Assembly: GCA_964016885.1 (NCBI GenBank)
Contig: OZ024742.1
Coordinates: 218,860,001 to 218,924,000, forward strand
Length of the DNA: 64,000 nucleotides
Origin: Eledone cirrhosa
Lineage: Eukaryota
Reading direction: 5' to 3'
Shown here: positions 4,008 through 51,509 of the stretch, piece after piece
Layout of the letters: every line of letters starts with the position of its first letter
Numbering within the stretch: position 1 is the first letter of the stretch
The notes under the pieces: generated by a model
Databases searched by the model: none
What the model was told of the DNA's origin: nothing
What the model saw: only the letters and a program-made list of their open reading frames with translations
Translations under genes and position numbers: made by a program

Positions 4008-4857
4008 GTCACGTTAGAAAGAATGTGATTAGTTGCTTATATATTTTATCAAATGATTCTATGGACATACTTTTGAAATATTGCTCTGATTATTTAATTT
4101 ATTAACTCTTCATTGAGCCACATCGTGAATGGTTGCCACATATATATCTGTGACTTTGTTTAGTTTGTATATATGTAAATCTTTATATTTAATAATCTCC
4201 CATTAGGTTGAGATGCAATTTGGGCAATATTGGGCTGCGCTTTCTAGCAACCAGCCCACTCACCGTAAGCAACTAATCACATTCTTTCTAACTTGACCAC
4301 TTCCACGTCACGATTCTTAGCCATTTTTTAATCTATTTCTGGCGGGGATCGCTTTGGAAAATTACCTGTCCTATGAGTTTGTCTCCTGATGAGTACGAAA
4401 CTCGAGATTTTATCCTTAATAGGATATCTCAAAACGCGAACGAAACCCGAGGGTAGGGACATATCATGGTAGGAGTGTACGCATTTCTTCTAACTTTAAA
4501 TTTACACCTAATTGTGTATGGTTGACGGTATATTTAGTCAATTTCTACATGCTGTTGAAATGTTAGGTAAATATTCTATTGCGGTCGGCCGCGAAGAGGC
4601 TGCTGTAGTTTATTTATCAAATATTTCTTCATAGGAGCCTTTATTCTTATAGCCTGGTCTAATTGATTTTTTATGTGGTTAATTATGCTAATTGGGAGAG
4701 GAAATGGTGTATATATTTTATCAAATGATACTATGGACATATTTTATGATATATTGCTCTGATTATTTAATTTATTAACTCTTCATTGAGCCACATCATT
4801 GAATGGTTGCCGCATATATATCTGTGACTTTGTTTAGTTTGTATATATGTAAATCTT
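4008..4857 (+). mobile_element. Non-autonomous hammerhead-bearing unit (~673 bp) with terminal direct repeat and short inverted arm
   Basis: ~4040-4183 repeated at ~4713-4857; ~4008-4040 is the reverse complement of ~4266-4298; hammerhead inside. Confidence 0.65.
4380..4461 (+). ncRNA. Type I hammerhead ribozyme with extended stem II
   Basis: tgtctc CTGATGA gt...ac GAAA ccc-ga-ggg TA gggaca. Confidence 0.7.
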
Positions 4858-5088: not shown

Positions 5089-5205
5089 GATATATTAACA
5101 AATGGAAACTATATTTATAAAACCATATTTATTTCATTATACATATTTCAAGGACACCAAGTTAAATTATGGTGCACTTTCATCAGATATATATATATAT
5201 ATATA

Positions 5206-7396
<2,191 letters not shown>

Positions 7397-9073: not shown

Positions 9074-9154
<81 letters not shown>

Positions 9155-9155
<1 letters not shown>

Positions 9156-9861
9156 AATTTTAATACAGCATTACGAAGCTTTTGGCTGCGGCTAAGCTAA
9201 CGAATGCAGATTCGGAATCCAGCATAGCACTCGATGGAGAATAATACCCCAGAGTTATAACAATACGTTTAGACAGCTTTGCAAATCAAATATAGCGACC
9301 GACAGTCCAGCCGCATTGCCATGGCAACCAAAAAAACTGAACTCAGGAAAAGATTTTGACTGACCTGGACCATCACGTGGATATCGAATGCAACACATAA
9401 CGCATAACGTATAGCATACAATATACATCACATAAAACATACAACATCCACGCTAGGTTTCTGTAAATCCGAGATCGACTAATTCCGCTTGCAGGGGTCT
9501 GCAAGTTAATGGCCTTTGATGACAGAACAAAGGATTTACTTTGTCAACAAGTCTTACGTTCTATAGCCTCGGCGGGTGTGTTTTCTAGCAGTAATTTTGG
9601 CGGTCAATTCGAAATTTGGGACATAGGAATGAAATTCCCTTAGACAAACCGAATTAAGCACTCAACCAGAAATTATCAAACAAACATAAACAATTAATCA
9701 ATCAATAGAATTGTCTAATTAAATTAATCAGTTAATCGTTAATTCTAGGAGTTAAAAATACAAATTTTAGTACAGCATTAACGAAGCTTTTGGCTGCGGC
9801 TCAGCTAACGAATGCAGATTCGGAATGCAGCTTAGCACTCGATGGAGAATAATACCCCAGA
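9155..9861 (-). mobile_element. Non-coding ~608-bp unit with ~97-bp terminal direct repeat in (TA)n; degenerate hammerhead
   Basis: ~9155-9251 repeated at ~9761-9860; minus strand TTGACAA a-gtaaatcc...ggatttac-a GAAA cctagcgtg at 9445-9547 (stems I/III damaged). Confidence 0.6.
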
Positions 9862-10638: not shown

Positions 10639-10640
<2 letters not shown>

Positions 10641-10795
10641 GTTATGTAATAAACAACATAAGATAATTATTTCATTTACCAGTGGTTTCTTGAAGACAGA
10701 TGTTTATGCCTGTCTTGAAGACAGACATAAACATCTGTCTTCAAGAAACCACTGGTAAATGAAATAATTATCTTATGTTGTTTATTACATAACTA
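10639..10795. repeat. Near-perfect fold-back palindrome containing the 3' half of a hammerhead
   Basis: apex at 10717; right arm reads ...ctgtcttcaa GAAA ccactgg TA aatg. Confidence 0.85.
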
Positions 10796-10854
10796 AAAAG
10801 CTCTGCAGCCTACATAGAGCACTCTCTTTTCCTTTACCATTCCTACAGAAATAC

Positions 10855-10893
<39 letters not shown>

Positions 10894-16498: not shown

Positions 16499-16526
<28 letters not shown>

Positions 16527-16530
<4 letters not shown>

Positions 16531-17552
16531 ATTAGTATATTTACCAACATATGCGTACAGATGTACACTAATGCTAGCAAATACATAAGTTATGTCATAG
16601 TACCTAGGTGCTTCTATGCAGGGGGATGCAGAACAATTATATGAAAGACGTAAAATAAGAAAATTTTAAAAATTAAAAATTAACTTACTTACTAAAATTT
16701 TCACTCCAACTAATTAGTTTCTGTAATGGGATAAAGATAGTTACGCAATGTAACTATCGAGAATTCATTACGTCATCAGGGAGTCTATTCTCAGCTAAGT
16801 TCCCAGGCAATGCGCGGACACTAGGAACTCATATAAAAATAATAATTCGGTGGATGGAACAGCTAGCGGGGATTGCATTCCATAGCACTGAAAAAGTTCA
16901 GTGTCTCTGGTCAAGTGGCAGATTCTAAAGAATCAATCACGTGACACTGAGGCTAGTCAGTAGGAGTGGGATGGTATTATGACAAGAGCCTACTACCACT
17001 ACAATATGAATTAGCAGTGGATTTGGCAAGTTTGCTCAACAAATAAATAATTTGGAGATAAATATAGAGAATTAGTATATTTACCAACATATGCGTACAG
17101 ATGTACACTAATGCTAGCAAATACATAAGTTATGTCATAGTACCTAGGTGGTTCTATGAAGGGGGATGCAGAACAATTATATGAAAGACGTAAAATAAGA
17201 AAATTTTAAAAATTAAAAATTAACTTACTTACTAAAATGTTCACTAGCCTCAGTGTCACGTGATTGATTCTTTAGAATCTGCCACTTGACCAGAGACAGT
17301 GAACTTTTTCAGTGCTATGGAATTCAGTCCCCGCTAACTGTTCCATCCACCGAATTATTATTTTTATATGAGTTCCTAGTGTCCGCGCATTGCCTGGGAA
17401 CTTAGCTGAGAATAGACTCCCGATGACGTAATGAATTCTCGATAGTTACATTGCGTAACTATCTTTATCCCATTACAGAAACTAATTAGTTGGAGTGAAA
17501 ATTTTAGTAAGTAAGTTAATTTTTAATTTTTTAAATTTTCTTATTTTACGTC

Positions 17553-17562
<10 letters not shown>
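16527..17562 (-). mobile_element. Non-autonomous hammerhead-bearing 540-bp unit, partial tandem copy and inverted arm
   Basis: 16531-16705 repeated at 17071-17245; ~17243-17562 is the reverse complement of ~16638-16957; flanked by TA/GA runs. Confidence 0.85.
16703..16784 (-). ncRNA. Type I hammerhead ribozyme (damaged mirror copy 17416-17496)
   Basis: minus strand: actcc CTGATGA c-gtaatg...cattac-a GAAA ctaattag TT ggagt. Confidence 0.8.
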
Positions 17563-18457: not shown

Positions 18458-18479
18458 ATATATATATATATGTGTGTGT

Positions 18480-21220
<2,741 letters not shown>

Positions 21221-23189: not shown

Positions 23190-26100
23190 AGACGTGAATT
23201 ACTTCGCTCCGGATTTTTACGGATTATTGTAAAAAAAACTGTGAGTTCATTGCTCAATTTAATAGCATTGTTTAGTTTAACCCCTTGCCTGGGCCGTCAG
23301 ACGTTGAGTCAACTAATTTTCGCCCCTTTCTGGGGCGAAATTTTCATTTTCATCTCAAAACTGTGTAGACTTGGTAGTCAGTAGTGGATGCCATTTCCAC
23401 CTCGCACACTGTCGTGAGTGCCAGGCCCACTAAGAGAAGTGGTGGAGGGAAGGTAGGAGTACAAAGTTTGAGCCTTCCCCCCTAGCATTATCGAAAAACG
23501 TTGAAAATATTGAAACCACGAAACCAAACCCGGTAAATAATGGTTTCTACTTTAGGCACAAGGCCAGCAAATACCCAGTGCATTACTGGTACTTTATTTT
23601 ATCGACCCCGTAAGGATGAAAGGCAAAGTCAACCTCGGCGGGATTTGAACTCAGATTGTAAAGGGACGTAACTATGCTGGAAAGCATGGCGTCCGACCCT
23701 CTACTGATACTGCCAATCCACCGCCCAAACCCGGTAAATAATACCAGCACCAACAACAAGAACAATGACAATAACACCACAACCAACAACTGCAACAATA
23801 GCAACACCAAGGAAAAAATGAACAATATTACCAACAGTGACAACAACAGCAGCAACAAAAAAGACAACAACACCAAAACAACATTCGCACAGACTGTAAA
23901 AAAAAACGAACTATACACGCCAATAGACATAACAAATGCTAAACAACTATTACAAGACGCAAAACAATTCGTGACTTTTGGCGAAAACGGTTCTTTTAGC
24001 ATCAATTCTCCACAGGAATTACGTAGAGAAGCTGTCCTGAAAACTGGTTTTCAGGACAATATCGAACGAAACAAGAAAACCAGCTCAATTAAGATGCAAT
24101 GAAGGACATTTGTGATGTTTGAACTTCATACAAAAAGGTAAACTGTTTGGTAGCATTTCGGTGCTAATGAACAACCAGTCAACAGCACAAAAGTACTCGG
24201 TATCACCCATTGTGTCCCCCCGCTTCACCTTTTTCCCCACATACAGGGGAAAAAGGACACAAAGAATAAAAATAATGAGTATCACACCAAATGTAAATAT
24301 TTGGTGGATACTATGTGGAATCATTGACTTTGATGAAGACAAGATAATTTCAATAGGAAAGTCCTCCGGAGGTGTATTTGGTGGGACCAGCGTAGAAGTT
24401 CTGGTGCAAATGAGCCCAGAACGAATAGCGAATATCCCACAACGCGGGCCTCTGGACGGGCTAACTTATATAAACATTTCAGTGGAGGGAAGGTGGCCGT
24501 CATGTTACCACTGCTAAACAGGGGTCACCTGAGGGCTGCCTGTCCTCAATTAACGAGTAAAAAAAAAAGGTTCTTTTGCCAAACCCGAACACAACCACCA
24601 CCACCACCACCACCACCACCACCACCACCACCACCACCACCACCACCACCACCACCACCACCACAACAACAACAACAACAACAACAACAACCACAACAAC
24701 ACGGAAAAATAACAACACAAAACACTGTTCCACCCAACCCCTCCCCACCTAAAACAAATACAAAAGCAACCACAACAAAACCCCAAAATATACCCCTCCC
24801 CAACAACACGGAAGAGGACTCTGTATCAACGTCACCCAGTGACGACGAGGGAGAACCCTTTCAACAGGTGAAAAGGAAAAAAAGGCACCACATTAACAAA
24901 AATTCCACAAACACACAACCACCAGCACAAACAGAACAAACATCACAAATAAAAAAACCCACCCCTCCCCAAAACATAACACATACTACAAAACGCAAAC
25001 ACGCACAAGAACAACAAACAAAAACAAACACAACACAAAAACTCTATACATACATTAACAAGAACAATAAAACGTTGATGAAAACAGTAGAAAATAACCC
25101 TTCGGTGGAAAACGAAGGGATCACTTTCACCTACGCAGCGAACAAACCGCACCTAATGATGATTAGGGTCCCAACGGAAACCTATGTAACTTTGAAAAAG
25201 AACCATCAAATGCATGTGGGGACCAACTGCATCAAACCACTTAACCACGTCCTATTGAGATGTTTCCCCACCCCCACACCAGACACCCACACCCCACCAA
25301 ACACCCTAATCCCACCACACACTGATGTCCTCACCCCACCACAAACCACCACCCCACCAAACAACCCTTCCAACACCCCCATGGAAATTGTGCAGCCTGG
25401 TCCCCAGGAGACGAAGAGGTAAGTAATTTCCTTTCCTCTACCTTTTTAACTCTTCAGCACCAACATGGCCAATATAAGAGTTGGATGTGTGAATGCACGC
25501 GGCCTGGGGATGTCCTGGAAACAGGGCACACTTTTAAATGACCTCAGGTCGCACAGAGTGGATGTAATGGTTATTTGCGAGTCCAGGATCAGCAGCGAGC
25601 GCCAACTGGCCCCATCTTCGACGACTTTGAAATCTACGCATCTCTCTGTCAGCCGAGGGGTGCGGGTGGGGTTGTCGTTCTGCTGCGAAAATACCTGGGT
25701 CTTGCCACACAGAAGGTACACCTGGACCCGGAGGGTCGACTGGTGGTTTTAGACGTCGGCAGTGGTGAAGTTGGAGCTTTCAGGCTGGTGGCAGCGTATG
25801 CCCCATCTGGGACACCGCGACCGGACTTCTTCCGACGCCTGGAGAATTTCCTGGGAACGTCTCTCTCCTTGCTTTTAGTGGGGGACTGGAATGGTATCCT
25901 GGATGCACGTTGGGACTATGTAGGGGCATGTCCCGATAGAGGGGGGTGTAACAGCCTCAAACGATTAATCGGCCGATTTGATCTGGCCGATAGATATCGA
26001 CTAGATTTTCCGACTGTGCCACTGTGGACGTGGACTAATCTTAGCGGAACATCTAGGTCGTACCTAGATAGGTTCCTAGTTAGAAATAAGGATAGGGACA

Positions 26101-29080
26101 TATTAAGCTGTCCACGAATGTTCATGGTTGACTTTTCGGATCACAAGTTGGTGACTGGAGTGGTCAGCCTTGATAGAACTCATAGACAGGGACCCGGTTA
26201 CTGGAAGCTAAACTTGTCTTTACCGACAAACAAAGCTTACAGTAAGCGGATTAGCACACTAGTTAAGAAGCGTTTGACAGGGGCAATTGTCAACAGCAGG
26301 TGGTGGGGCTCTCTCAAGAGAGAAATTAGAATAGAATCGATAGGTTTTAGTTCTGAATTAGCATCAGATAGGAATAGAACTGAAAGGGAATTAATAAATA
26401 GAGTAGAAGAGGCGATTAGGAGTGGAAACGTGGCCGGCGTGCTGGCGTCAAGAACGGCCCTAGACCAGTTCTTTGATGCGAAGCACGAGGGCTGCGTTGT
26501 CAGGAGTAAAATACGTGCTCTGGGTAACGAGGGAGCCAAAGCTGTTAGCTGGGCCCGAGTGACAGAGGCAAAAAGTGGAAACAAGTCCACGATTCGGTCT
26601 TTGAAGGACCAGGATGGACGAGTGATCCTTGAACATGAGCGGATGAGCGCGGCCTTTCAACGGCGCTTTGCACGACTGTTCGGGAGGGGCGGCAGGCCGG
26701 GTGGGGCCATGGATTTCGGTCCATACCTCGACGGTCTGGCGCGGCTCTCGGACGGGGAGGCGAAGTCCTGCGAGAGGCCGATTTCAGCCGCTGAAATAGG
26801 GGAAGCACTGAGCCAATGCGTCAAACGAAAATCTCCGGGTATCGATGGTCTACCATACGAACTTTATGTAGCGATGCCGGGCTTGTTCTCCGGTCTCTCC
26901 GAGGCGGTCTACTGCAACGGGAGAATTCCCAGTTCTGTGACCAAGGGCGTAGTCACAATGGTGAGGAAGGACGAGAACAAGGGGGATGACATAGATAACT
27001 TCAGGTCCATAACTCTGCTAAACACAGAGTTAAAGATTTTGGCCAATGTGTTAGCGAAGAGGTTGGCGCTTGTCGTCGGGAACCTGGTGGAAGAAGCGCA
27101 GACATGCGCAATCCCGTCCAGTTCCATACACGACAACCTCCACCTCATGCGATACATGGTAGAGAGGGTAGGGAACGAACCCGGCTTTGGTGGGGCCCTG
27201 ATCAACTTGGATCAATCTAAAGCGTTCCTTAGGTACCTGGATGCGGTGCTCGCGGCGGCAGGCTTCGGACCCGTTTTCAGGGGCTGGATTGCTGCAATGC
27301 ACAGCAGCAACACCTGCTCGAGCGTCAAAATGAACGGCTACCTCTCGGAGCCGTTCCAAATCACACGATCCATCCGACAGGGATGCCCTCTCTCCTCCCT
27401 CCTGTATGTGCTGGCTCTCGAGCCACTACTGCGGAAGCTGGAGCTGTTGCAGGGCATCCCCTTGGAACCGGGATTGCGGAAAGCGGTGTCGGCCTACGCC
27501 GATGACGTGACAGTAATGGTTTCGTGCGCCTCGGAAATCGGGGTGATCGGCACCTTACTGGAGGAATATGAAAGGTTCACAGGAGCCAAGCTGAACCGGG
27601 ACAAATCCGTCGGTTTGCAACTCGGGACGTGGAGGGGCAAAACGATGCCCTCCGACGGCATCGTCGGACGCTGGACGGAGGGACCGGTGAAGCTGCTCGG
27701 GGTCTGGTTCGGACCGGACCTCCAGGTGGAGAAAAACTGGGACGAGGTAACGGACAAGGTGTTTGCACTCGCCCAGAAGTGGACCGAGTGCAAACTATCC
27801 CTGAAAGGTCGAGCGGAGGTGGCGAACGCTTATATAGCGTCCGTCATCTACTACCGCTTGACCGTCGTGCCTTGCCCAGAGAAAACACTCGCCAAAATGG
27901 AGCGCGCGCTCTTCCGATTTCTTTGGAAGAAGCGGGCTCCTTTGGTGAGAAGATCCATCTGCTGTCAACACCCTTCGAACGGAGGGCTGGGGATGCCGTG
28001 GATGACGATGCGTAGACACGCATTAAGGCTACGGCACCTCCAGGTATTCCTCACCGGTCAGCCGGGGTGGGCCCTGTTTGTGAGGCAAGCCTTTCCGAGA
28101 CTCGTCTCACTCACCGAGCTGCAATCCTAGGTCAAGCAAAGACCGAGAAAAGTGGTTGACTGGCACATTGAATGTGCCCAGGCGCTCACGGCCCTCTGGC
28201 AAGCGGATCCGGCAATCAGTGGAGACTCAACTTCAACCAACATTCTATAGATTGTTGGTGCGCAGTAAGTGCGACGACGCTCTCGGAGAGGCTCTGGGCA
28301 TGGAGGAAGATGAGTTGGCCAGTCTGTTCGGTAGGACGTTTGGCCCGGGACCGATGGACAACTTCCAAAAGTCCCTGGCTTGGCAATGTTACCGAGGAGC
28401 TCTACCTGTTCGGGACAATATCTACCCGTTCGAGACAAACCCTCGAAGAAGATCTGTCCGAGATGCGTGCGTGACGATGAAACCGTTGCACACGCATTCG
28501 TACACTGCCGGGCGTTGCTGACCTGTGGAACGACTACTGTCGCGGGTGGGACCAATCCGGTTGACCACAGAGAACATTGTCACGATCAAACCGCCTCCCC
28601 TATTCAAAAACGAAGGAGAGGCGGTTTTCTTCTGTGTGATAGCTATGGCGAAAGAAGTTGTATGGTGGATAAGGTTGAAAGGGCTGAGGTCTGACACCTT
28701 TCTCTCCGGCCAACAACTGGTCTTTTTTTTCAAGTACCACTTTAGAAGAAGGATCAGAATGGAGAGAGAGGTGCTCTACCCCAGCAAGTTTTATGAAAGG
28801 TGAGTGAAAGTAGCGAGAATGGCCCGAGTGAATGGGCCTTCTCTCTATATCAGCTTGTAGGTGAGAGAGGAGAAGAATGAGAAGAGGAAGGAAGCACCCG
28901 CTCTTTGTGCTCCTGAAGAGGAGGGTTGCACATTTTTTCGGGGGTGTGTGCGACCTATGTCAACGCCCCTCCCTATTGAGGACATCGATTGTTAAATTTA
29001 ATTTGTTATATGTTTTTTACACGTCTTTTTAAATGTATGTAAACTCCCCCCTTTGTATTTGTCCCAATCTTTGATGCCCT
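23190..29080 (+). mobile_element. Near full-length Tx1-like LINE, frameshifted (copy 1)
   Basis: ORF1 pieces 23743-25422 with VEGR..CYHC...GHLRAAC knuckle; ORF2 25465-28860 with APE motifs (VNARGL, GDWN, YLDR, SDH), RT (RQGCPLS, YADD) and C-terminal CPRC..ET..H...C; 5' boundary uncertain. Confidence 0.9.
23542..23725 (-). mobile_element. SINE family A inserted in the LINE 5' region
   Basis: 17-bp TSD caaacccggtaaataat at 23525-23541 and 23726-23742. Confidence 0.92.
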
Positions 29081-31581: not shown

Positions 31582-31706
31582 AATTGAAATACTAGAGTGT
31601 GTTGGAGTTAAACACCCTCTTCGTATTATAGAAATGACAGTAAAGGTATAGCTCAATGTAATTAAACAGAGCCGAAGAATTATATATACATAATATATAT
31701 ATATAC

Positions 31707-31789
<83 letters not shown>

Positions 31790-34700
31790 ATACACTATAT
31801 ATATATACATACACACACACACACACACAGATAACCAAGTCAATGTACAGAATGGTTTTCATAATGCAGACAGACAGACATACGGACAGATATTATAAGG
31901 GCGTGACGTTATAGCTATGTATCTATCTAAAAAGACAGACTAAGAAAAAGAGAAAGATCGCTAACATTTTAAAGAAGTGAATATTTAAATAAACAATCAA
32001 ATATCTTTAATTTTTAACCAAATTTAGTTGACAAAATACTCTCACTTTCTTACTTGGAAAAAGTTACATCTATGGTGCAAATTTGCTGCTCTTTGGTCCA
32101 GCCCTCAGCTTTATAATATATATATATATATATATATATAGTATTAGTTATACTATTTATGGTTATGTAAACACAAAACCTTAAGCAGTTGTAAGTATTT
32201 TACACACACCCTAAATAGTGGTAGGCAGTAATGTATTACTACCTTATTACCAGTAAGTTAAGTAGCTCAATGTAAAAACATCAGATGATTTACAGAGCAG
32301 TTATATGAAATATAAGAATCAAAGAACTGTTCAAAACATTATTGTGCTTACAGCTGTTTCCTCCAAACCGAGGTTTGGATTCTTCGGAGCAATTTATTAA
32401 TGCATGGACAGTTATATGACCTCCTTTTCAGCCGAGAGACATACCAATACATATTCAAACATTGATACATATTCAAACATTGTGGGTCAACATTCATTAC
32501 AAAATTTAGAGTGGCAGTACACACTTCGAGATTACATTTATATTAATAGGTACAATCAAAAATCAAAGATATAGGTTAAAGTACAACATGAAGATAAGTG
32601 GTTATATAGTGCAAATGTTATATGTGTGGCACGCATGTGCGTCTTGTTTATATAGTGTGGCAGAGAGATATGTGTGGTAGAGGCACTTAGGTAGGTAAAT
32701 AAGAGTGTTAGGTTGGTAGATCTGGTGGCAAAGTCTTTATATGATTGATGTAGTCTGTGTGTGGAGAAATATTATAAGTATTAAAGATAGTGCAAGCATT
32801 AAAAGTGTTATAAGTATTGGAGATGCACAACGCAGGGATGTCAAGTAATTCATGTACTTCGGCATTTTCATGGTCAAGGGAGTGTATATTTCGATTATAT
32901 GCCTTTCACATAATCCACGACAATCCAGTTAGAGATCGTAGTCTGGTGTTCTTTAGTTCGATACAGGAGGTTGTTACGTTTCGAGAGACGCCATTGAATA
33001 CCGGAAGTGTGTGTGTGGCTAAGGGGAGTTAATGCATGCGGGGAGGTAACTCTGGGGTTTCTATATCTAGCCATTAAAATGTGTCCCAATATGGACCCTA
33101 AATTCTATGGTGAGGTGCACCTTCCAAGAGAGACTTTTAAAGCATAAAGTGCACTAACTATAGAGTAGTTTAACTAAATTATGCTGAAGGTGATCATATT
33201 ATTATTAAGGTGGATTAACCCATCTTAAGGTGCTACAAATGGAAATTATAGATGATGAGCGAGGATTCTAAATTAATGATCTCTGTGGTTGTAGTCTGCT
33301 CATATGACCAGGCGTGGTGATTGCAGGATTGCTTCAGGACCCAATGATCTCTGGTAAGATCTGGGTCATCGCTTGCTACATTGGATGTCGAAAGATAATC
33401 GTCCCCAGGCAGGCCAAAGGTCAATCCGCAGTCCTCGCGACCCCTCTCTGACCGTCAGATCATCCATATACGTACAACCCGCACGGCAGTTGCATTGCAT
33501 TCACTCACTGCGCTCAGCAGCCCGGTCCTACTGGTCAACAGCGCTACTCGATTAAATCATTTTACATCTGTCTAAGGAAGGTGTTTCCTCTGCCCAACAC
33601 CATCCAACCGATCAATTCATGCTCAAATTACCCTTAGTGTGGTAGAGGCACTTAGGTAGGTAAATAATTGTAACTGTAGAGCTAATAGAACCTGCCCCTT
33701 AGATAAAAAATGCCTAACCAAGGATGTCATATACTCATGCACAGTCACGACTAATAACTCTTCAGAAACCTATGTAGGCTCCACTTCTAACTGCTTCAAA
33801 ATTAGATATAACTCGCACATCCACTCGTTCAAAAAGCACAGCCTAGCCAACTCCACCTCACTTTCTAGCTACATACACTATCTAAAATCTAAAAATAAAC
33901 CATACACACTCAAATGGGAAGTGATAGGCAGCGCGACCTCGTACAAACCACCTAATAAATTCTGTAACCTCTGTATACTAGAGACACACAATATTATCTT
34001 CTCCAACCGTAACCTACTTAACAAAAAATCTGAGGTGTTTGCAACTTGCCAACACCGCCTCAGACATTCCTTCCAAAACTTTAAGCCCTATATATAGCAA
34101 TGTCGGACTGGAACCTAACACCACATCTAGCATCAAACACCAGAGACACACCCTATACTACATACCCAACACTAGCTGATCCATTATAACACAAACAACG
34201 ACATCCCTCTGGAACCCTTCGCAGGGAAAATACCCATTTATACCTCTACGGCAGGTGTGACAACATCCACCCACCTGGACGGCACTACACCGCTCTAAGG
34301 GTAATTTGAGCATGAATTGATCGGTTGGATGGTGTTGGGCAGAGGAAACACCTTCCTTAGACAGATGTAAAATGATTTAATCGAGTAGCGCTGTTGACCA
34401 GTAGGACCGGGCTGCTGAGCGCAGTGAGTGAATGCAATGCAACTGCCGTGCGGGTTGTACGTATATGGATGATCTGACGGTCAGAGAGGGGTCGCGAGGA
34501 CTGCGGATTGACCTTTGGCCTGCCTGGGGACGATTATCTTTCGACATCCAATGTAGCAAGCGATGACCCAGATCTTACCAGAGATCATTGGGTCCTGAAG
34601 CAATCCTGCAATCACCACGCCTGGTCATATGAGCAGACTACAACCACAGAGATCATTAATTTAGAATCCTCGCTCATCATCTATAATTTCCATTTGTAGC

Positions 34701-35540
34701 ACCTTAAGATGGGTTAATCCACCTTAATAATAATATGATCACCTTCAGCATAATTTAGTTAAACTACTCTATAGTTAGTGCACTTTATGCTTTAAAAGTC
34801 TCTCTTGGAAGGTGCACCTCACCATAGAATTTAGGGTCCATATTGGGACACATTTTAATGGCTAGATATAGAAACCCCAGAGTTACCTCCCCGCATGCAT
34901 TAACTCCCCTTAGCCACACACACACTTCCGGTATTCAATGGCGTCTCTCGAAACGTAACAACCTCCTGTATCGAACTAAAGAACACCAGACTACGATCTC
35001 TAACTGGATTGTCGTGGATTATGTGAAAGGCATATAATCGAAATATACACTCCCTTGACCATGAAAATGCCGAAGTACATGAATTACTTGACATCCCTGC
35101 GTTGTGCATCTCCAATACTTATAACACTTTTAATGCTTGCACTATCTTTAATACTTATAATATTTCTCCACACACAGACTACATCAATCATATAAAGACT
35201 TTGCCACCAGATCTACCAACCTAACACTCTTATTTACCTACCTAAGTGCCTCTACCACACATATCTCTCTGCCACACTATATAAACAAGACGCACATGCG
35301 TGCCACACATATAACATTTGCACTATATAACCACTTATCTTCATGTTGTACTTTAACCTATATCTTTGATTTTTGATTGTACCTATTAATATAAATGTAA
35401 TCTCGAAGTGTGTACTGCCACTCTAAATTTTGTAATGAATGTTGACCCACAATGTTTGAATATGTATCAATGTTTGAATATGTATTGGTATGTCTCTCGG
35501 CTGAAAAGGAGGTCATATAACTGTCCATGCATTAATAAAT

Positions 35541-35587
35541 TGCTCCGAAGAATCCAAACCTCGGTTTGGAGGAAACAGCTGTAAGCA
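35541..35587 (+). ncRNA. PLE pseudo-LTR minimal hammerhead, U4C variant (copies 39740-39786 +, 32345-32391 -)
   Basis: tgct CCGAAGA a-tccaaacc-tc-ggtttgga-g GAAA cagctg TA agca. Confidence 0.75.
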
Positions 35588-35836
35588 CAATAATGTTTTG
35601 AACAGTTCTTTGATTCTTATATTTCATATAACTGCTCTGTAAATCATCTGATGTTTTTACATTGAGCTACTTAACTTACTGGTAATAAGGTAGTAATACA
35701 TTACTGCCTACCACTATTTAGGGTGTGTGTAAAATACTTACAACTGCTTAAGGTTTTGTGTTTACATAACCATAAATAGTATAACTAATACTATTAACTG
35801 CTCCATATCGTTGAGCTGACATATAATATTGCCAAT

Positions 35837-38296
35837 ATGCTAATCAAAGACCAACTCCCCATGTCAACCAAGAACATACCAATACCATCCAGGAATACAT
35901 ATGAGAAATTGCTGATCAACAGTGTAAATTCATTTATCAATAGAGTGAGATGGAGGACATTCCATTATGATAGAAACAAATCTAACAACTTGAATAATAC
36001 TAACAATTTTGACTCCTTCGGCTTTAAAACCTTTAAAAGCCCCCCTCATAACACTCTACTTAACTCCTTTGAAAATGACCTAGTTAAACTAGTTAAGAAC
36101 ATTAAATACAATAAGCACCATATTAGAAGCAACACCTTCTTAAACAAACTTAACACTTCTATTAGTGGATTCAAAACTAGTAATAAAATTATTGTACACG
36201 CAGATAAAACTAATAACATATACAGCCTAGATTATATTACTTATAGAAAGTTTATATATAATGAACTACATAAAAGCTACAAAAAAACCACCTTGAAAAA
36301 CTTAGAAGATATTAATGTAGAGGGTTATAATATAGTGTCTAAACTAGGACTACAGAGGCATACACAACCTTTCACTCCGAACCCCCCTAGATTCTCTCTG
36401 AAGGACCATAAGGAGAACTTCATCAGCAACCCCACGATAAGACTTATCTGCCCTTCCAAGTCCGACATTGGTATTATCAGCAAGAAGATTTTGGATAAAA
36501 TCATCCCACAAATTAAACACAAGATACACCTTAAACAATGGGGAAATACGGGTGAAGTAATTGAATGGTTTAAGGATATCAAGAATAATAAGAACAAAAA
36601 ATTTATTCAATTTGATATCAATTCATACTACACCTCTATTTCCCCTATCCTATTAAATAAGGCACTTATCATGGCCATGACCAATAGCGACCTGACTAGA
36701 GCCCAGGTTGATGTCATCCTTGCGGCCCGTAAAACCATAATCACCTTCGAGGACCAACTATGGACACGCAAGGATACGCACAACAACTTCGACATAACCA
36801 TGGGATCTAGTGACTCGGCGCAGGTCACTGATTTGGTCGGCCTATACCTCCTCAATGAAATCCATAAAGACCTCCCTTACCTCAACGGTGGTTTGTACCG
36901 CGATGATGCACTTCTACTCATAGAATATAAAAAATTTAATATAGAAAGAACTAGAAAACAACTGCATAAGACATTCAAAAACTTTAACCTTAGTATCACC
37001 ATGGACAAAAACACTAAAAATGTTAACTTCCTAGACGCCACACTATACCTAGACTCAAAAATATATACACCTTTCCATAAGCCTAATGAGAAACTTATTT
37101 ACGTAGATACCAAGTCTAATCACCCTAGATCAATATTAAACTCTATCTCTAAGGGGGTGTCCAATAGAATCTCTAGTCTGTCCTATGACGCAAACATATT
37201 TAGCAAAAACTCACAATATTACAATCAAGCATTAGCTAGCTCCGGCCATAATATAGAAATAGAGTTCCTACCTAAGAAAACACATAGCTACAACATCATC
37301 TCGCACAACATGTCCATGAGGAAATCTAATAATAGGAATAGCAACCACAAGTACACCAAAGCGGAGGGTGCCACCGGAAGTAACCATTACCATGGAAACT
37401 ACTGTGAGGCCTTAGGAGGAAGCAACACACCAAACACTAAAAGCAAAAATAGAAGAAGAAATAATACATTTTTCAACCCTCCTTTCAACCTAAATGTCTC
37501 CACCAACATACCTAGGGCTTTCTTCTCACTACTAGATAAAAACTTCCCTCTAGGACACAAGTACCACAACCTCTTAAACAAAAACACCATTAAAATCTCA
37601 TACTCTACGACGCCTAACTTAGCATACCACATAGCTAGCAGCAATAATAGTAAAATTAGTTCTTACTTCCAACAAACAAAATCACAACGGGATGCAAACC
37701 CTCTAAATACCACTGTAGCAAGCAACAATAGCAACGGCAGTAACAATAGAAATAACACTAGTATAAGTAATAACACCAGGGTTGTCAACCTGAACACCCA
37801 AAATCCTATATCCACCACACAGACTTCCGCATTGCATTATAACCAGCGGACTAACGCACAGAATAATTGTAACTGTAGAGCTAATAGAACCTGCCCCTTA
37901 GATAAAAAATGCCTAACCAAGGATGTCATATACTCATGCACAGTCACGACTAATAACTCTTCAGAAACCTATGTAGGCTCCACTTCTAACTGCTTCAAAA
38001 TTAGATATAACTCGCACATCCACTCGTTCAAAAAGCACAGCCTAGCCAACTCCACCTCACTTTCTAGCTACATACACTATCTAAAATCTAAAAATAAACC
38101 ATACACACTCAAATGGGAAGTGATAGGCAGCGCGACCTCGTACAAACCACCTAATAAATTCTGTAACCTCTGTATACTAGAGACACACAATATTATCTTC
38201 TCCAACCGTAACCTACTTAACAAAAAATCTGAGGTGTTTGCAACTTGCCAACACCGCCTCAGACATTCCTTCCAAAACTTTAAGCCCTATATATAG
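35837..38296 (+). CDS. PLE reverse transcriptase + C-terminal GIY-YIG endonuclease (819 aa)
   Basis: ADKT, FDINSYY, ITMGS, LYRDD, FLD; linker CNCRANRTC (CxCx5C); VIY..YVG nuclease motif; C-terminal CNLC..E and C.H; uninterrupted ORF. Confidence 0.95.
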   Translation: MLIKDQLPMSTKNIPIPSRNTYEKLLINSVNSFINRVRWRTFHYDRNKSNNLNNTNNFDSFGFKTFKSPPHNTLLNSFENDLVKLVKNIKYNKHHIRSNTFLNKLNTSISGFKTSNKIIVHADKTNNIYSLDYITYRKFIYNELHKSYKKTTLKNLEDINVEGYNIVSKLGLQRHTQPFTPNPPRFSLKDHKENFISNPTIRLICPSKSDIGIISKKILDKIIPQIKHKIHLKQWGNTGEVIEWFKDIKNNKNKKFIQFDINSYYTSISPILLNKALIMAMTNSDLTRAQVDVILAARKTIITFEDQLWTRKDTHNNFDITMGSSDSAQVTDLVGLYLLNEIHKDLPYLNGGLYRDDALLLIEYKKFNIERTRKQLHKTFKNFNLSITMDKNTKNVNFLDATLYLDSKIYTPFHKPNEKLIYVDTKSNHPRSILNSISKGVSNRISSLSYDANIFSKNSQYYNQALASSGHNIEIEFLPKKTHSYNIISHNMSMRKSNNRNSNHKYTKAEGATGSNHYHGNYCEALGGSNTPNTKSKNRRRNNTFFNPPFNLNVSTNIPRAFFSLLDKNFPLGHKYHNLLNKNTIKISYSTTPNLAYHIASSNNSKISSYFQQTKSQRDANPLNTTVASNNSNGSNNRNNTSISNNTRVVNLNTQNPISTTQTSALHYNQRTNAQNNCNCRANRTCPLDKKCLTKDVIYSCTVTTNNSSETYVGSTSNCFKIRYNSHIHSFKKHSLANSTSLSSYIHYLKSKNKPYTLKWEVIGSATSYKPPNKFCNLCILETHNIIFSNRNLLNKKSEVFATCQHRLRHSFQNFKPYI

Positions 38297-40297
38297 CAAT
38301 GTCGGACTGGAACCTAACACCACATCTAGCATCAAACACCAGAGACACACCCTATACTACATACCCAACACTAGCTGATCCATTATAACACAAACAACGA
38401 CATCCCTCTGGAACCCTTCGCAGGGAAAATACTCATTTATACCTCTACGGCAGGTGTGACAACATCCACCCACCTGGACGGCACTACACCGCTCTAAGGG
38501 TAATTTGAGCATGAATTGATCGGTTGGATGGTGTTGGGCAGAGGAAACACCTTCCTTAGACAGATGTAAAATGATTTAATCGAGTAGCGCTGTTGACCAG
38601 TAGGACCGGGCTGCTGAGCGCAGTGAGTGAATGCAATGCAACTGCCGTGCGGGTTGTACGTATATGGATGATCTGACGGTCAGAGAGGGGTCGCGAGGAC
38701 TGCGGATTGACCTTTGGCCTGCCTGGGGACGATTATCTTTCGACATCCAATGTAGCAAGCGATGACCCAGATCTTACCAGAGATCATTGGGTCCTGAAGC
38801 AATCCTGCAATCACCGCGCCTGGTCATATGAGCAGACTACAACCACAGAGATCATTAATTTAGAATCCTCGCTCATCATCTATAATTTCCATTTGTAGCA
38901 CCTTAAGATGGGTTAATCCACCTTAATAATAATATGATCACCTTCAGCATAATTTAGTTAAACTACTCTATAGTTAGTGCACTTTATGCTTTAAAAGTCT
39001 CTCTTGGAAGGTGCACCTCACCATAGAATTTAGGGTCCATATTGGGACACATTTTAATGGCTAGATATAGAAACCCCAGAGTTACCTCCCCGCATGCATT
39101 AACTCCCCTTAGCCACACACACACTTCCGGTATTCAATGGCGTCTCTCGAAACGTAACAACCTCCTGTATCGAACTAAAGAACACCAGACTACGATCTCT
39201 AACTGGATTGTCGTGGATTATGTGAAAGGCATATAATCGAAATATACACTCCCTTGACCATGAAAATGCCGAAGTACATGAATTACTTGACATCCCTGCG
39301 TTGTGCATCTCCAATACTTATAACACTTTTAATGCTTGCACTATCTTTAATACTTATAATATTTCTCCACACACAGACTACATCAATCATATAAAGACTT
39401 TGCCACCAGATCTACCAACCTAACACTCTTATTTACCTACCTAAGTGCCTCTACCACACATATCTCTCTGCCACACTATATAAACAAGACGCACATGCGT
39501 GCCACACATATAACATTTGCACTATATAACCACTTATCTTCATGTTGTACTTTAACCTATATCTTTGATTTTTGATTGTACCTATTAATATAAATGTAAT
39601 CTCGAAGTGTGTACTGCCACTCTAAATTTTGTAATGAATGTTGACCCACAATGTTTGAATATGTATCAATGTTTGAATATGTATTGGTATGTCTCTCGGC
39701 TGAAAAGGAGGTCATATAACTGTCCATGCATTAATAAATTGCTCCGAAGAATCCAAACCTCGGTTTGGAGGAAACAGCTGTAAGCACAATAATGTTTTGA
39801 ACAGTTCTTTGATTCTTATATTTCATATATTTCATATATTTCATATATATATATATATAAAGTTTTCGTGAAATAGTCTTTAAGACTATACAGAGCATTT
39901 GAAGTTTTTTTCCAAATTGAAGGATGAGTATTTTAAACTTTATTTTATCATGAGTTAAGGCTCTATTGATTTGTCCATAGATTTCACTAAATTCTGTTGG
40001 ATAAATCTATATCCTGATTCTTTTTGAGTTGAGTTTGAATTCTTTTTCCCACATCTTACGTTAACTATTTTTCCCATTTTGACGCTATAGTCACTTATAT
40101 ATTATGGAATACTGTTGGCTTTTTGCTACAATATTTTCTATACCTTTCATTTATATATATATATATATATACACACAGATAAATCCACCAATTAATGGTA
40201 GGGTCTAAACCGTATGAAGAACTCAATGTAATCTGTATGTAGAAGATGTCGTGAAGCAAAGTTTAAAATACAAAATTTTCAACGATATAATTCATAG

Positions 40298-40800: not shown

Positions 40801-40806
<6 letters not shown>

Positions 40807-41585
40807 TATAGACATAGAATATTCGAAAATATTCTGTATGTTTATAATAAACATTTTGAAGACCTAATCGCTATAGAATAGAATACGTCACGTATTACAA
40901 TTAGATTCTCGATAAAAGCAAGGGAAGTAATCTACGCGTTTCATTCTTGTTAGAAATCTTCAGGACTACATATCCAGTGCTTTTATCGAGAATGACACAG
41001 CTAGAGACTTATAGAATACTTAGCTGTGTACAGGAACTGGTTTGAAAGAGCGGTTGCCGGTCCGGCAGAAATTAGAAATTGGAATAAATGCTCTGAAATA
41101 GCGATATATCGAGATATATTGCTTTTATCGAGAATCTAATTGTAATACGTGACGTATTCTATTCTATAGCGATTAGGTCTTCAAAATGTTTATTATAAAC
41201 ATACAGAATATTTTCGAATATTCTATGTCTATATTCACATATATATCGCTATTTCAGAGCATTTATTCCAATTTCTAATTTCTGCCGGACCGGCAACCGC
41301 TCTTTCAAACCAGTTCCTGTACACAGCTAAGTATTCTATAAGTCTCTAGCTGTGTCATTCTCGATAAAAGCACTGGATATGTAGTCCTGAAGATTTCTAA
41401 CAAGAATGAAACGCGTAGATTACTTCCCTTGCTTTTATCGAGAATCTAATTGTAATACGTGACGTATTCTATTCTATAGCGATTAGGTCTTCAAAATGTT
41501 TATTATAAACATACAGAATATTTTCGAATATTCTATGTCTATATTCACATATATATCGCTATTTCAGAGCATTTATTCCAATTTA
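40801..41585 (+). mobile_element. Non-autonomous hammerhead-bearing 310-bp unit: inverted copy + 1.5 tandem copies
   Basis: 41121.. repeats at 41431..; 40801-41109 is an inverted full unit; both ends in (TA)n. Confidence 0.88.
41381..41423 (+). ncRNA. Minimal type I hammerhead (mirror copy 40927-40969)
   Basis: gtagtc CTGAAGA t-ttct-aaca-agaa-t GAAA cgcg TA gattac; palindromic ACGCGT stem III. Confidence 0.85.
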
Positions 41586-41903
41586 TATATATATATATAA
41601 CGAAGGAAGTGTGGTAAGGAACCAGGTGGACCATAACGCACCAGAGTACTCAATACTTAGGGTAGTAGAGTGGGTAATTGGAAAAAGTTCAAGACCCCGA
41701 CGGCAGAGCTCAAACCGTTTCGACGGCTATTTCAGAAATAGCCGTCGAAACGGCTTAAGCTCTGCCGTCGGGGTCTTGAACTTTTTCCTATATATATATA
41801 TATATATAGTGTTCTGTATAGAATCAAGTATTGTTGTAAGAGAGACAGAGCAACAACCTGTTTATTTTAAGGAATGATTGAGTAAAAAGGAGGCGGGGAG
41901 GTG

Positions 41904-42740: not shown

Positions 42741-42789
42741 TTCTATCTATCTATTTATCTATTTATGTAACCCAGAAGTGGGCAGAGTG

Positions 42790-44225
42790 CAAACTATCCT
42801 TGAAAGGTCGCTTTCATAGCGTCCATCATCTACTACCGCTTGACTGTCGTGCCTTGTCCCCGTGAATACCACACCAAGATAGAACGCATGCTCCTCCAGT
42901 TCCTGTGGAAGAAGCAGGCTCCCCTGGTAAGAAGATCCGTCTGCTGTCAGCACCCTTCCAACGGAGGGCTGGGAATGCCGTGGCTGATGATGCGCAAACA
43001 TGCGCTGAGGCTACGGCATCTTCAGGTATTCCTCACCGACCCCCAACTGGTGTGGGCACCGTTTGTGAGACAGGCCTTCCCGCAACTTGCCTCACTGACG
43101 CAGCTGCAGTCCTGAGTCAAGTGGAGACCGAAGAACATGGACGTCTGGCACATTGAATGCGCTCAGGCGCTCACAGTCCTCTGTCAAGCGGGCACAGCAA
43201 TCAGTGGAGACTCCACTTCGACATTCTATGGAGAGTTAGTACGTCACAAGGGCAACGACGTGCTCGGAGAGACTCTGGGCGTCGAAGACGACGAACTCAC
43301 CAGTATGTTTGGTAGGACTTTCCGCCCGGGACCTATGGACAACTTCCAGAGGTCCCTGGCCTGGCAGTGCTACCGATGAACTCTACCAGTTCGAGACAAG
43401 ATCTACAGGCACGGACGCCCCGGCAGGGATCCTTCCAAGAGGACGTGTCCAAGATGCGAGCAGGACATTGAAACCGTCCTGCACGCAATTGTACACTGCT
43501 CGGGCGTAACCGACCTGTGGAACTACGCAGAACAACTGCTGTCGGGTATGGGACAAATCCAGTTGACTGCCGAGTCCATAGTAAGGATCAAACCGCCAAC
43601 CTCTTTCAAAAACGAAAGAGAGGCGGTTTTCCTCTGTATATTGGCTATGGTGAAAGAGGTTATATGGTGGACGAGATTGAGAGGACTGAGAACAGATGCC
43701 TTTATCTCCGGATAACAACTCATTCCCTTCTTTAGGTACCACTTTAGAAGGAGAATCAGAGTGGAGAGAGAGGCACTGCACCCCAGTAAATTTACTGAAA
43801 GGTGGGTGAATGTGGAAAAAATGTCCCGAGTGATTGGGCCTTGAAGGTTGAAGAAGAGAGTAAAAGGAAGAAGGGAGCACTTGCATAACACACTCCTGAA
43901 GTTGAGGGTTGTTCTATCGACGGGGTATTAAACAACGCATTTGTGGCAGCCCCCCCCCCCCCCCCCCCCCCCATTGGAGATTTCGATTGTTTTATTTGTT
44001 TGTTTCAATATTTTTACACGATTGTATGTAAAATCCCCGGCATGTGTCTTTGTTTTGTCCCCTTGTGCGCAAATAAAGAAATATATCTATCTAACTATCA
44101 ATCTGCTATCCATCTATCTATCTATCTATCTATCTATCTATATTTTACACGTTTTTATTGTATGTAAACTTCCCCCTTTGTATTTGTCCCCTTCTTTTGT
44201 GCCCCTGTGGCTAATAAAGAAATAT
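42790..44225 (+). mobile_element. 5'-truncated Tx1-like LINE (copy 2) in (TCTA)n
   Basis: Colinear with ORF2 3' part and 3' UTR of copy 1; stops; two successive 3' ends each followed by (TCTA)n. Confidence 0.88.
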
Positions 44226-46302: not shown

Positions 46303-46564
46303 TATATGCTTACATACACACATATATATATGCATACATACTCATATGATGGCTGAAACTTGAGTTCGAGTAATTCCTTCGCTACTGGTAACATGTAACC
46401 CAGTACAGCCTCTGCATACCCCACCGGCAGCCCCACTTGGCTTGCTTGGTGAGGTGGGTGATTTTGGACACCCTGCGGGATGAAAAATAAAGCCCTTCAA
46501 TGGGCGGAGGAACTCAGGAGAGTCAACGGCAATCCAATCAAGTTTTTTTTATTTTATTATTAAC

Positions 46565-46755
46565 GGGCGGTGGATTGGCAGTATCGGTAGAGGGTCGGAC
46601 GCCATGCTTTGACGCATAGAGTTACGGCCCTTGCCATTCTGAGTTCAAATCCCGCCGAGGTTGACTTTGCCTTTCATCCTTACGGGGTCGATAAAATAAA
46701 GTACCAGTAATGCACTGGGTAATTGCTGGCCTTGTGCCTAAAGTAGAAACAATTA
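46565..46755 (+). mobile_element. SINE family A
   Basis: Full copy, A/B-box-like head (tggcagtatcgg, gagttcaaatcc). Confidence 0.9.
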
Positions 46756-47369
46756 TTATATATGAGAGTATTGAAGTTTGCTTGAAGCATTATGGAACAA
46801 TAAGTAAATATCTTTAAGTCGTTTGGAAGCCTCGACAATGCAAATGGGTAAATCTCCGGGTAACAAGGTCCGGTGGTGGAGAGAGAGAGATGTAAGTGGT
46901 GTACGTTGAGATGCGTGGTGTGTATAACATGTGTGAGATGTGTAGAATGAAGGGAAGAGTATAAAGGATAAAAATAAAAATAAAAATAAAAATTAAAATA
47001 TTATATATATTTTTTGTTTGAGCGAGAGATTCCCAGTCTCCATGAAGACATCTCTTTAGGAGGTCACTCTGATAAAAAAAAAACCTACGACTTCGTTTGC
47101 ATCCAATGATGTAGACCAGTTCTTCTTTTTGGTCAAATGCATTCAATGTTCAGAGAGAGGGATTGGACCTGTGCAAAACCTTTCCTCACTTAAAATGCTT
47201 CAAGCACAGGCATCGCTTGATATGTGACATTTTTTGCGATGCATCGTATGGTTCGCCATGCCAAGTATCTGGTATGACTAGAAAGCCACGTCTGTGATGC
47301 TCATGCGTAAGTATCAAGCAATGACATTACTCGAAATCGAGTTGCAGCAATCATATATATATATATATA

Positions 47370-47600: not shown

Positions 47601-47673
47601 AGGTTCCAGCGAGTTTCGAACTCACGACCTTCTGCGTGTTAAGCAGATGTGATAACCACTACACCATGGAACC
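47601..47673 (-). tRNA. tRNA-Val (anticodon AAC), gene or recent pseudogene
   Basis: GGTTCCA/TGGAACC acceptor stem, TCTGC-TTAACAC-GCAGA anticodon arm, GTGAG-TTCGAAA-CTCGC T arm, TTTT 7 nt downstream. Confidence 0.8.
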
Positions 47674-49185: not shown

Positions 49186-50158
49186 ATGTATATATACGTG
49201 TATATAAATATGCGTGTGTGTATGCACGTTTGTGCCTTTCATTATGCGTGTGCGTGTGTTTGCTTGTGCGGTGGCATGTGAAGAAATATAACACTGCGAT
49301 GATGAACCGCACTTTTGTAGAGAGACCAGATTAAAAAATATATGGCTGCTATCACTGAAGTAAACCATTGTATAGGAAGAGAAAATCATAGATAGATAGA
49401 GAAAGTGAGAGAGTGAGAGAGAGATAGAGAGAGAAAGAGAGAGGGAGAGAGAGGTGGGGGAACTGTAAGGAAGAGAAGGAGAAGTACATCAGATACAATA
49501 CGTACTATTCCACTAGCCTGAAAAGAATATTATCATCTATTATTAGACCACCGCTATGTGTTTGGTTTTTTTTAGCTATTTAGTGAGATCTAACCACCAC
49601 GGGTGAGACCATACCGGAGCACCGCATGCGTGTGTGTTTGTATATAAATAGCTGTAAGGTTACACAATTCCTTTCGTCACCACATGATTCCAGGTTCGAT
49701 CCTACTTCTCGATCATTTACAGAAGTATACTTTACTATATATATAGCCTCGGGTTCAACAATATCTCGTGAGTGGAAACTCGTACACGGAAGCTGTACAG
49801 GGGCACGCTGTATATATATATATATATGTATATGATGTCTCTGAGTATTTTAAAAACTCAAATTACGATAATTTCAGGGTCGGTGAAGTTATATAGATAT
49901 CCTCGAGTGAGGGGCGGGGGGGGGGGGGGTGTTATGATCAAAGTTGCTAGTGGTTAGTGGAGTTCAGAGAGCACTAGAGGAAGCACATATATTTGGAAGT
50001 GTCGGGGTGGTAGATTTTAAGCCAGTTTCTAAGAGAGGTGAATGTTAAAGCGGGTGGAATATACGTATAAGCAAACATTTTCCGGAGAGAAGCTTGAAGA
50101 AGTTTAGTCTGGACAGCAGATGCAGACTATAGATAGGCTTTGAAGCATCTTTACATGT

Positions 50159-50507
50159 AATTGTTTCTACTTTAGGCACAAGGCGAGCAAAATAACCAGT
50201 GCATTACTGGTACTTTATTTTATCGACCCCGTAAGGATGAAAGGCAAAGTTAACCTCGGCGGGATTTGAAATGTAATTGTTTCTACTTTAGGCACAAGGC
50301 CAGCAAATTACCCAGTGCATTACTGGTACTTTATTTTATCGACCCCGTAAGGATGAAAGGCAAAGTCAACCTCGGCGGGATTTGAAATGTAATTGTTTCT
50401 ACTTTAGGCACAAGGCCAGCAAATTATCCAGTGCATTACTGGTACTTTATTTTATCGACCCCGTAAGGATGAAAGGCAAAGTCAACCTCGGCGGGATTTG
50501 AAATGTA
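50159..50507 (-). repeat. Three tandem ~117-bp partial copies of SINE family A
   Basis: Unit aattgtttctac...gggatttgaaatgt repeated three times. Confidence 0.9.
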
Positions 50508-50786
50508 ATGACAGTGAAATATATTTGACTACAGAAACATGTAAATACCTAACTTTACCGAAATTATCTGACATGATATTAAACGAGTGAAGCAGTTCTA
50601 GTGGTTCTATATGAAATAAATATGTACATTCTAATATATTGAGTACTTGATTTAACTGCTGTGCCCTTTCGTTCCTCTTCGAAAAAAACATTCTGATCGC
50701 TAAGGAAGTTATGACATGTTCACAGTTTCAATATTCACAACGATACTGCGTATGTTTAGTATACGTAAACACATTGACTCTATTAT

Positions 50787-51261: not shown

Positions 51262-51509
51262 GGGTTCAATCGGGGATAACCACTGTAAGTAAGGTACTCA
51301 ATACATTAGTAGAGTGTAAACAACTAATTAAATATAGAAATGGATTCTACAGGACTAGAACTGTTTCATTGGGAGGAAATCAACAGGAAAGTCGTGAAGA
51401 TTTCCTCTGAATGAACAGTTCTAGTCCTGTAGAAGCCATTTCAATATTAAATATTTATACTCTGTTATGTATTGAGTACCTTACTTACTGTGGTTACCCC
51501 CGATATCCC

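Follow-up and report, generated by a model that had tools for sequence, protein, structure and literature searches.

The 64,000-nt stretch of Eledone cirrhosa DNA analyzed here (the window) contains a Penelope-like element (PLE) whose 3' ends stop a few nucleotides ahead of small hairpins, and units without an open reading frame (ORF) in the same stretch also end ahead of hairpins of this kind. The question that this arrangement raises is whether the hairpins specify where reverse transcription (RT) of these elements starts. A preliminary description had placed GCTC...TTGAGC hairpins just past both PLE ends and a CTC...GAG arrangement in six other units. The coordinates hold, with the second PLE end at 35794 instead of 35793, and CTC...GAG is present in all six of the other units where it had been located.

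On its translated sequence, the 819-amino-acid ORF is that of a Hydra-clade PLE. By eye it contains RWR, DKT, and CNCRANRTC and lacks CCHH, to be compared with the RWK-like motif, the change of DKG to DKT, the CxCX5C linker, and the lack of CCHH listed for Hydra-clade proteins (PMC8557442). A Pfam search with the ORF gave zero matches, and the top fold match of its predicted model (mean pLDDT, 84.9) was TERT. The family is young, and many copies retain an open frame; each of the 150 genomic matches to the RT part that were scored was 98-100% identical. The assembly containing the window is that of an animal and measures 3.0 Gb. The PLE inserts into (TA)n and is accompanied by partial tandem and inverted 5' copies, as in the Hydra clade. 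A variant hammerhead core at 35545, part of a predicted ribozyme, lies on the sense strand in the pseudo-LTR, and the leader then runs in the order hammerhead, TA patch 1 (T1), hairpin 1, TA patch 2 (T2), hairpin 2, ATG (Table 1). A second, broken PLE of another clade lies at 18460-21220 on the minus strand with a canonical hammerhead core at 18596; no read-through copy of it was found in the genomic sample.

Table 1. Positions of the PLE, its terminal signals, and the other hairpin-bearing units of the window
Feature	Position	Strand	Remark
Hydra-clade PLE ORF, 819 aa, RT and C-terminal GIY-YIG	35837..38296	+	ORF translation, motifs, fold match
Main unit, 4199 nt, ending at T1 (39829), then two additional 9-nt patch copies and (TA)n	35631..39847	+	
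5'-truncated tandem copy (pseudo-LTR), continuing into the leader	33663..35630	+	Equals 37862-39829
Inverted truncated copy, ending at T2 against (TA)n; hairpin 1 kept	32138..33643	-	
Type I hammerhead-like motif, variant core CCGAAGA; predicted cleavage after 35583	35540..35588	+	Descriptor search
T1: TA patch, first fixed 3' end	35626..35630	+	17/35 distinct 3' ends at 35628-35630
Hairpin 1: 4-bp lower stem, UU bulge, 6-bp upper stem	35634..35667	+	
T2: TA patch, second fixed 3' end, 164 nt past T1	35792..35794	+	16/35 distinct 3' ends at 35791-35794
Hairpin 2, finishing 20 nt ahead of the ATG	35800..35816	+	
673-nt ORF-less unit; hairpins 4083-4118 and 4195-4214; hammerhead core 4386	4038..4857	+	
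593-nt ORF-less tandem unit; hairpins 5729-5788 and 5607-5623; U3-A8 hammerhead variant 5277-5364 (by eye)	5201..7211	-	
608-nt ORF-less unit; hairpins 9229-9255 and 9660-9752	9150..9861	-	
Short element and inverted copy; hairpin 10800-10820	10639..10857	+	
540-nt ORF-less unit; hammerhead core 16779; TTC/GAA hairpin 17151-17174; CTC/GAG hairpin 17034-17057	16520..17560	-	
Abundant short family (also 2818-2945); hairpin 41648-41671	41611..41791	-	Inverted copy stops just ahead
Inverted pair, hairpin on both arms (model hits 51290-51323 minus, 51451-51483 plus)	51277..51496	.	Absent from the preliminary description

The 3' ends of the PLE are fixed. Hairpin 1 begins 3 nt past the end at 35630, with which the copy ending at 39829 agrees, and hairpin 2 begins 5 nt past the end at 35794, the match of the inverted copy at 32138 extending one base beyond the 35793 first given. 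At 56 loci outside the window, 33 of 35 distinct 3' ends fell at T1 (17) or T2 (16), one of the remaining two at the hammerhead cleavage site and the other at an internal rearrangement, and the 5' ends were scattered (59 ends at 58 positions); the copies mapped were the best-scoring, youngest ones only. The region from 35361 to 35836 offers 23 TA patches, of which 2 account for those 33 ends and 21 are unused. Placement at just any TA patch, which would have spoken against the preliminary description, is thus not what the ends show. Contig depth falls after T2 in one run (X1), whose contigs otherwise indicate no more than that the sequence is present; no RNA data set was listed as containing the PLE stretch. 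The copy at the cleavage site (L242; G000:C12, near 6.405 Mb) ends exactly at the predicted position, 35583, hinting that the variant ribozyme cuts and that a cut end can be copied.

The T1 patch was reiterated at 4 of 13 ends compared with 1 of 19 read-throughs. This difference is no more than suggestive of telomerase-like re-copying of the patch, for which DNA slippage is an alternative. Repeats of the 7-9 nt T1 patch, two to four times, are seen in the window at 39821-39847 and at six other loci (L015, L023, L232, L239, L243, and L258); at L232 the reiterated patch stands before an intact hairpin.

Four tandem units (593, 540, 608, and 673 nt) resemble non-LTR retrozymes in being short and having no ORF. 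All four carry two hairpins and three carry a sense hammerhead-like motif, no hammerhead having been found in the 608-unit; the descriptor recovered that of the 540-unit, and that of the 673-unit in one search and not in a stricter one. At 27 other loci, 36 of 37 3' ends of the 593-unit lie at its two sites, and its 5' ends occupy 32 different positions among 34. The spacing of the two sites is 162-163 nt in the 593-unit and 164 nt between T1 and T2 of the PLE; both families are very young, and the window self-comparison found no similarity between them. The preliminary description had missed several hairpins, including the TTC/GAA hairpin at 17151-17174, which belongs to the second terminus of the 540-unit, those at 4083-4118 (673-unit) and 9229-9255 (608-unit), and further sites. 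It was right about the 673-unit hairpin at 4195-4214, but the window copy of this unit ends at 4857 against non-TA sequence, and the TA-abutting end comes from a homolog elsewhere. In two copies, at 9861 and 31647-31690, it is the 5' end that abuts (TA)n, at a hairpin or immediately ahead of one; the comparison for the 31647 site was spoiled by TA repeats. The window further contains LINE-like RT copies, mostly broken, with upstream ORF1-like frames (25575-28844, 42770-43841, and 51846-60823), an abundant SINE-like repeat (11415-11627, 23536-23726, 46552-46759, 50155-50509, and 51690-51830; once as a 116-nt tandem), and one tRNA match (47601-47673).

The association of hairpin and terminus extends beyond the window. 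The starting set comprised 1061 TA-tract flanks from the window and a further 1.2 Mb. For 67 of them a tandem or inverted copy that reads through was present nearby, and omission of 9 window rows and of 5 pairs more than 5 kb apart left 53 pairs in 35 families. Outside the window, CTC was present at +2 to +13 past the terminus in 18 of the 35 families against a background of 13.1%, and the 4-bp stem in 13 of 35 against 3.3% (p=4e-11); on the reverse strand the stem was found in 1 of 35. CTC was the top trimer past termini without prior choice. With the rule fixed beforehand, a held-out 400 kb had the motif past 8 of 19 family termini against a background of 3.0% (p=4e-8); one of the eight families new to this set was positive under the strict rule, and three more were near misses by eye. 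Read from motif to terminus, 78 of 116 repeated motif sites had a copy ending in (TA)n directly 5' of the stem; the corresponding counts were 5 of 63 for the 3' side of the stem and 102 of 1753 for TA patches taken at random. Counted by family, the figures were 20/45, 4/39, and 42/792, respectively, and 25 of the 45 repeated motif families had no TA-ending copy in the sample. As the preliminary description had expected, the motif is commoner at termini than at random positions, about 10-fold. Hammerheads found within 200 nt upstream of a terminus were all in sense (7/7), at 36-58 nt from the end; the distance is 47 and 211 nt in the PLE and about 80 nt in the 593-unit.

Not every TA-ending family follows this pattern. 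CTC with the bulge-GAG was lacking in 25 of 45 such families, and these motif-less families, about half of the total, may depend on other elements. They include the 429- and 310-units, which the preliminary description had likewise found to be without a clear motif and which have hammerhead cores at 1004 and 41387, respectively. TA-ending families without the Hydra hairpin lie in the window at 545-1160, 40803-41587, and 63191-63589. The read-through of a palindromic family of this type is AC-rich, and several read-throughs begin with a GTTT(T)C-like word. The sequences past these termini are possibly signals of other PLE clades.

The motif is also present in Hydra elements of other organisms. 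A scan of public metagenome data yielded 78 Hydra-like loci, 49 of them with a leader of at least 100 nt, forming 29 groups (foreign leaders). The 4-bp stem was found in 28 of the 29 groups and twice in 20, compared with about 7 and 1 in ORF or shuffled controls; the reverse-complement control was uninformative because the stem is symmetric. Sequence-only anchors recovered 47 motif instances in 26 of the 29 groups, mostly two each, between the hammerhead and the ATG. The paired hairpins are 54-83 nt apart; the bulge is UU, UC, UA, or UG, and most instances have an ACU tail. Of 20 alignment ends in the foreign loci, 11 lie by eye 0-8 nt before the stem or just inside it, 5 of these abutting a simple AT-rich repeat, and 9 are not near a hairpin. 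The (ATTT)n tract against which one foreign copy (L190) ends matches the patch of that copy, which fits microhomology-guided priming. Inspection by eye revealed the motif at the ends of four of six deposited Hydra consensus sequences, one with a CCC/GGG stem, without remark in the accompanying text (PMC8557442); it was not evident in the stretches inspected of Hydra-1_Obim and Hydra-1_Amil. The genomic sample of the present assembly contains many diverged Hydra copies (about 40-57% identity), two of which have a full hammerhead or hairpin-hairpin-ATG leader. Two blocks of loci (L131-L140 and L121-L130) represent other Hydra families whose leaders are complete; hairpin 2 of one family contains more than 100 nt of inserted sequence.

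The signal consists of a 4-bp N-C-U-C/G-A-G-N' stem, a 2-nt 3' bulge, and a variable upper stem, and is usually located 5-7 nt downstream of a short TA patch. The loop varies in length, as the preliminary description had noted, and does so from about 5 to more than 100 nt while the pairs covary; the conserved part, described there as a closing stem, proved to be the 4-bp stem together with the bulge and upper stem. Upper pairs 1-3 are Watson-Crick in 46/47, 30/43, and 21/29 foreign instances, compared with 32.6, 13.5, and 9.2 in class-stratified shuffles, in which kinship is retained; the Watson-Crick excess at upper pair 4 was not significant (47 foreign instances). The outer pair is kept in 17 of 20 genome families against 7.0 in the shuffle, kinship again retained, in A-T, G-C, and T-A forms. 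A few G-U pairs are found among the motif instances. RNAalifold predicts the identical fold from 14 aligned foreign instances; the lower stem is invariant in these 14 leaders and hence uninformative on pairing there. The fold is weak, being the minimum-energy structure in just 21 of 47 foreign instances. Mismatches at the outer pair occur in the two hairpins of the 593-unit (A.C) and at the 540-unit site (T.C), and the 593-unit is very active despite its broken outer pair. TTC/GAA variants of the stem occur in the 540-unit and at L201. Taken together, these observations identify the motif as a genuine structured cis element that is found throughout the clade and tied to the ends of elements. 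The covariation that the preliminary description had proposed to look for is present, and the motif is conserved across Hydra PLEs.

A covariance model was based on the 14 of 47 foreign instances with inserts of 12-14 nt; MAFFT misaligned variable loops. Trained on foreign leaders and run over the window, it gave 24 hits, among which are the two hairpins of the PLE, the site at 10800, the second hairpin of the 593-unit, and previously unnoticed sites, and it missed long-loop sites, the 540 site, and the 4195 site. Five of its eight best hits are in families with TA-ending copies. None of the 150 Rfam matches listed, of 167 in the window, lies at the PLE hairpins, and Rfam searches of eight foreign loci gave a single weak, unrelated match.

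How might such an element act? The hairpin past the 3' ends is probably an RNA binding site for the element protein, placing internal target-primed RT on the UA-rich patch upstream. Read-through, multimeric, or hammerhead-cut circular RNA would put the hairpins 3' of the body to be copied. The RT-endonuclease (RT-EN) would bind the stem and bulge and nick a (TA)n tract, and a TA primer would then pair over 2-6 nt with the patch. Copying would proceed upstream from the patch, and the hairpin used would for this reason stay uncopied. Two hairpins would give two ends, and priming at hairpin 2 would retain hairpin 1 as the optional "tail" (54-83 nt in foreign leaders and 164 nt here). That the hairpin positions the RT had been proposed in the preliminary description and is, with partial support from the sequence comparisons, still the best explanation.

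The placement of ends relative to the stem bears on this reading and on its chief alternative. The range of end positions that TA microhomology allows covers a distance of 5 nt from the stem in 16 of 20 families, 6 nt in 17, and 7 nt in 16, and positions -5 and -6 are A or T in 42/47 and 45/47 foreign instances. If the hairpin directed an RNA cut a few nucleotides upstream, by self-cleavage, a host nuclease, or the element's own protein, RT could start conventionally at the new 3' end; ends would then lie at a near-constant distance from the stem, as they do, and the one copy that starts at the hammerhead cleavage site hints that cut 3' ends are usable. However, the ends of one family shift among several neighboring TA patches, 0-13 nt from the stem, which a bound protein priming in a short window fits better than one exact cut; such shifts are predicted by flexible priming. 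In addition, the sites have no Rfam ribozyme match among those listed, the conserved core is very small, and the Poseidon element PAc initiates internally, with cleavage dispensable (PMC11167929). Cutting of the RNA at the hairpin is unlikely.

A role of the motif in DNA is quite improbable. The hairpin, extruded or single-stranded, would in that case be recognized by the GIY-YIG endonuclease, which would trim or resolve an integration intermediate upstream. Tails have been proposed to arise from EN-mediated resolution (PMC8557442), and the tail of D. virilis Penelope is reported to be required for EN recognition (PMC11167929). Covariation alone cannot separate RNA from single-stranded DNA, and the patch reiterated before an intact hairpin at L232 is a possible outcome of insertion into the element's own leader. 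Against a role in DNA, the motif keeps a strict polarity with the ORF and hammerhead, its loops of about 5 to more than 100 nt exclude a fixed double-stranded site, and a few G-U pairs occur.

We regard as highly improbable a different role of the hairpins in the leader, in translation, RNP assembly, or hammerhead folding, with the ends set by TA-richness or by distance from the hammerhead. The distance from hairpin to ATG is 31-66 nt in 24 of the 26 foreign leaders, and protein binding aids hammerhead cleavage in PAc (PMC11167929). However, they are kept in units that have no ORF, 21 of the 23 TA patches of the PLE are unused, the distance from hammerhead to end is variable, and each of the two hairpins owns an end. 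Chance in AT-rich repeats, favored by the shortness of CTC and GAG, has a negligible probability and is refuted by the enrichment at termini outside the window (p=4e-11), the held-out result (p=4e-8), and the conservation across foreign leaders.

Under the preferred reading, in which the protein bound at the hairpin places RT on the patch, ORF-less hammerhead repeats with the module would be mobilized in trans by some Hydra family. The preliminary description had extended trans-mobilization to the short units generally; it would apply only to those that are tandem and ORF-less. Among the short families are also truncated 3' ends of other autonomous Hydra families. Because the genome contains these families and many diverged Hydra copies, the 819-aa protein is only a candidate partner. 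A more general proposal, for which we consider the chances about even, is that the hairpin serves Hydra PLEs as an RNA "RT promoter" that is portable and present in duplicate. The hairpin would never be copied in the event that it starts, would act as a ruler of 5-7 nt for priming, could let the RT copy the patch again as telomerase does, and would also be the tag that recruits a PLE to hammerhead circular RNAs.

The motif bears on the choice of ends by PLEs, on their need for tandem pseudo-LTRs, on the optional nature of their tails, and on the identity of the enzyme that moves animal retrozymes. Priming at the hairpin would explain how repeats that encode no protein are mobilized. If confirmed, the proposal would for the first time tie animal retrozymes by sequence to a named clade of partner elements, and it would supply a start signal that could be transplanted to direct RNA-templated insertion. 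With the motif, ORF-less repeats can be assigned to a PLE clade and the boundaries of Hydra elements annotated, and template positioning can be compared in the sister group of telomerase. The motif also narrows the system down to a minimal RNA, about 40 nt long, for which disruptive and compensatory mutants can be predicted; because the family is young and has many open-frame copies, the proposal lends itself to a direct test.

LINE-type 3' stem-loops lie upstream of the start and are copied into each insertion. The hairpin described here, unlike this type of signal, lies beyond the end and is uncopied, and its position downstream of the start means that tandem or circular templates would be needed. 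In telomerase RNA, a short internal template patch stands beside a structure. The PLE resembles telomerase in its TERT-related RT and in the occasional reiteration of its patch. Terminons expose telomeric repeats downstream of the hammerhead and have no endonuclease (PMC6431247); unlike in these Terminon/Athena elements, copying here continues into the whole element. The LINE/SINE pair of eel UnaL2 likewise has a small bulged hairpin common to autonomous and non-autonomous partners (PMC1636434).

The PLE agrees with the Hydra clade in its protein motifs, hammerhead, (TA)n insertion, and tandem and inverted structure, but at 4.2 kb the unit is longer than the usual size of less than 3 kb (PMC8557442). 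The tails of Hydra elements are ascribed to resolution by the endonuclease, and the main text of that study contains neither "hairpin" nor "stem-loop" (PMC8557442). The preliminary description had known of no account of the signal. No description of the motif was found in the open-access text that was searched; internal initiation at a stem-loop is known in a Poseidon PLE, PAc, in which two internal RT starts downstream of the hammerhead define the tail (PMC11167929). PAc shares with the PLE of the window an AT-rich target, an RNA structure at the start, and two tail-bounding starts past the hammerhead, represented here by genomic ends. It differs in that its starts fall in the ORF, where an AC-rich stem-loop encloses them and the site has no homology to the target, whereas the ends described here are in the leader, upstream of each of two hairpins, at a patch that matches the target; a conserved, portable, or duplicated motif is not among the features reported for PAc in that account (PMC11167929). 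Metazoan non-LTR retrozymes, for which a dependence on PLEs has been proposed, are short, tandem, ORF-less elements that contain a type I hammerhead (PMC7229834, PMC7761336, bioRxiv 10.64898/2026.07.22.740005). According to the sections of a 2020 review that treat them, they show no conserved motif pointing to a partner (PMC7761336). Unlike retrozymes as reviewed there, the 593-, 540-, 608-, and 673-units of the window share their motif with Hydra PLEs.
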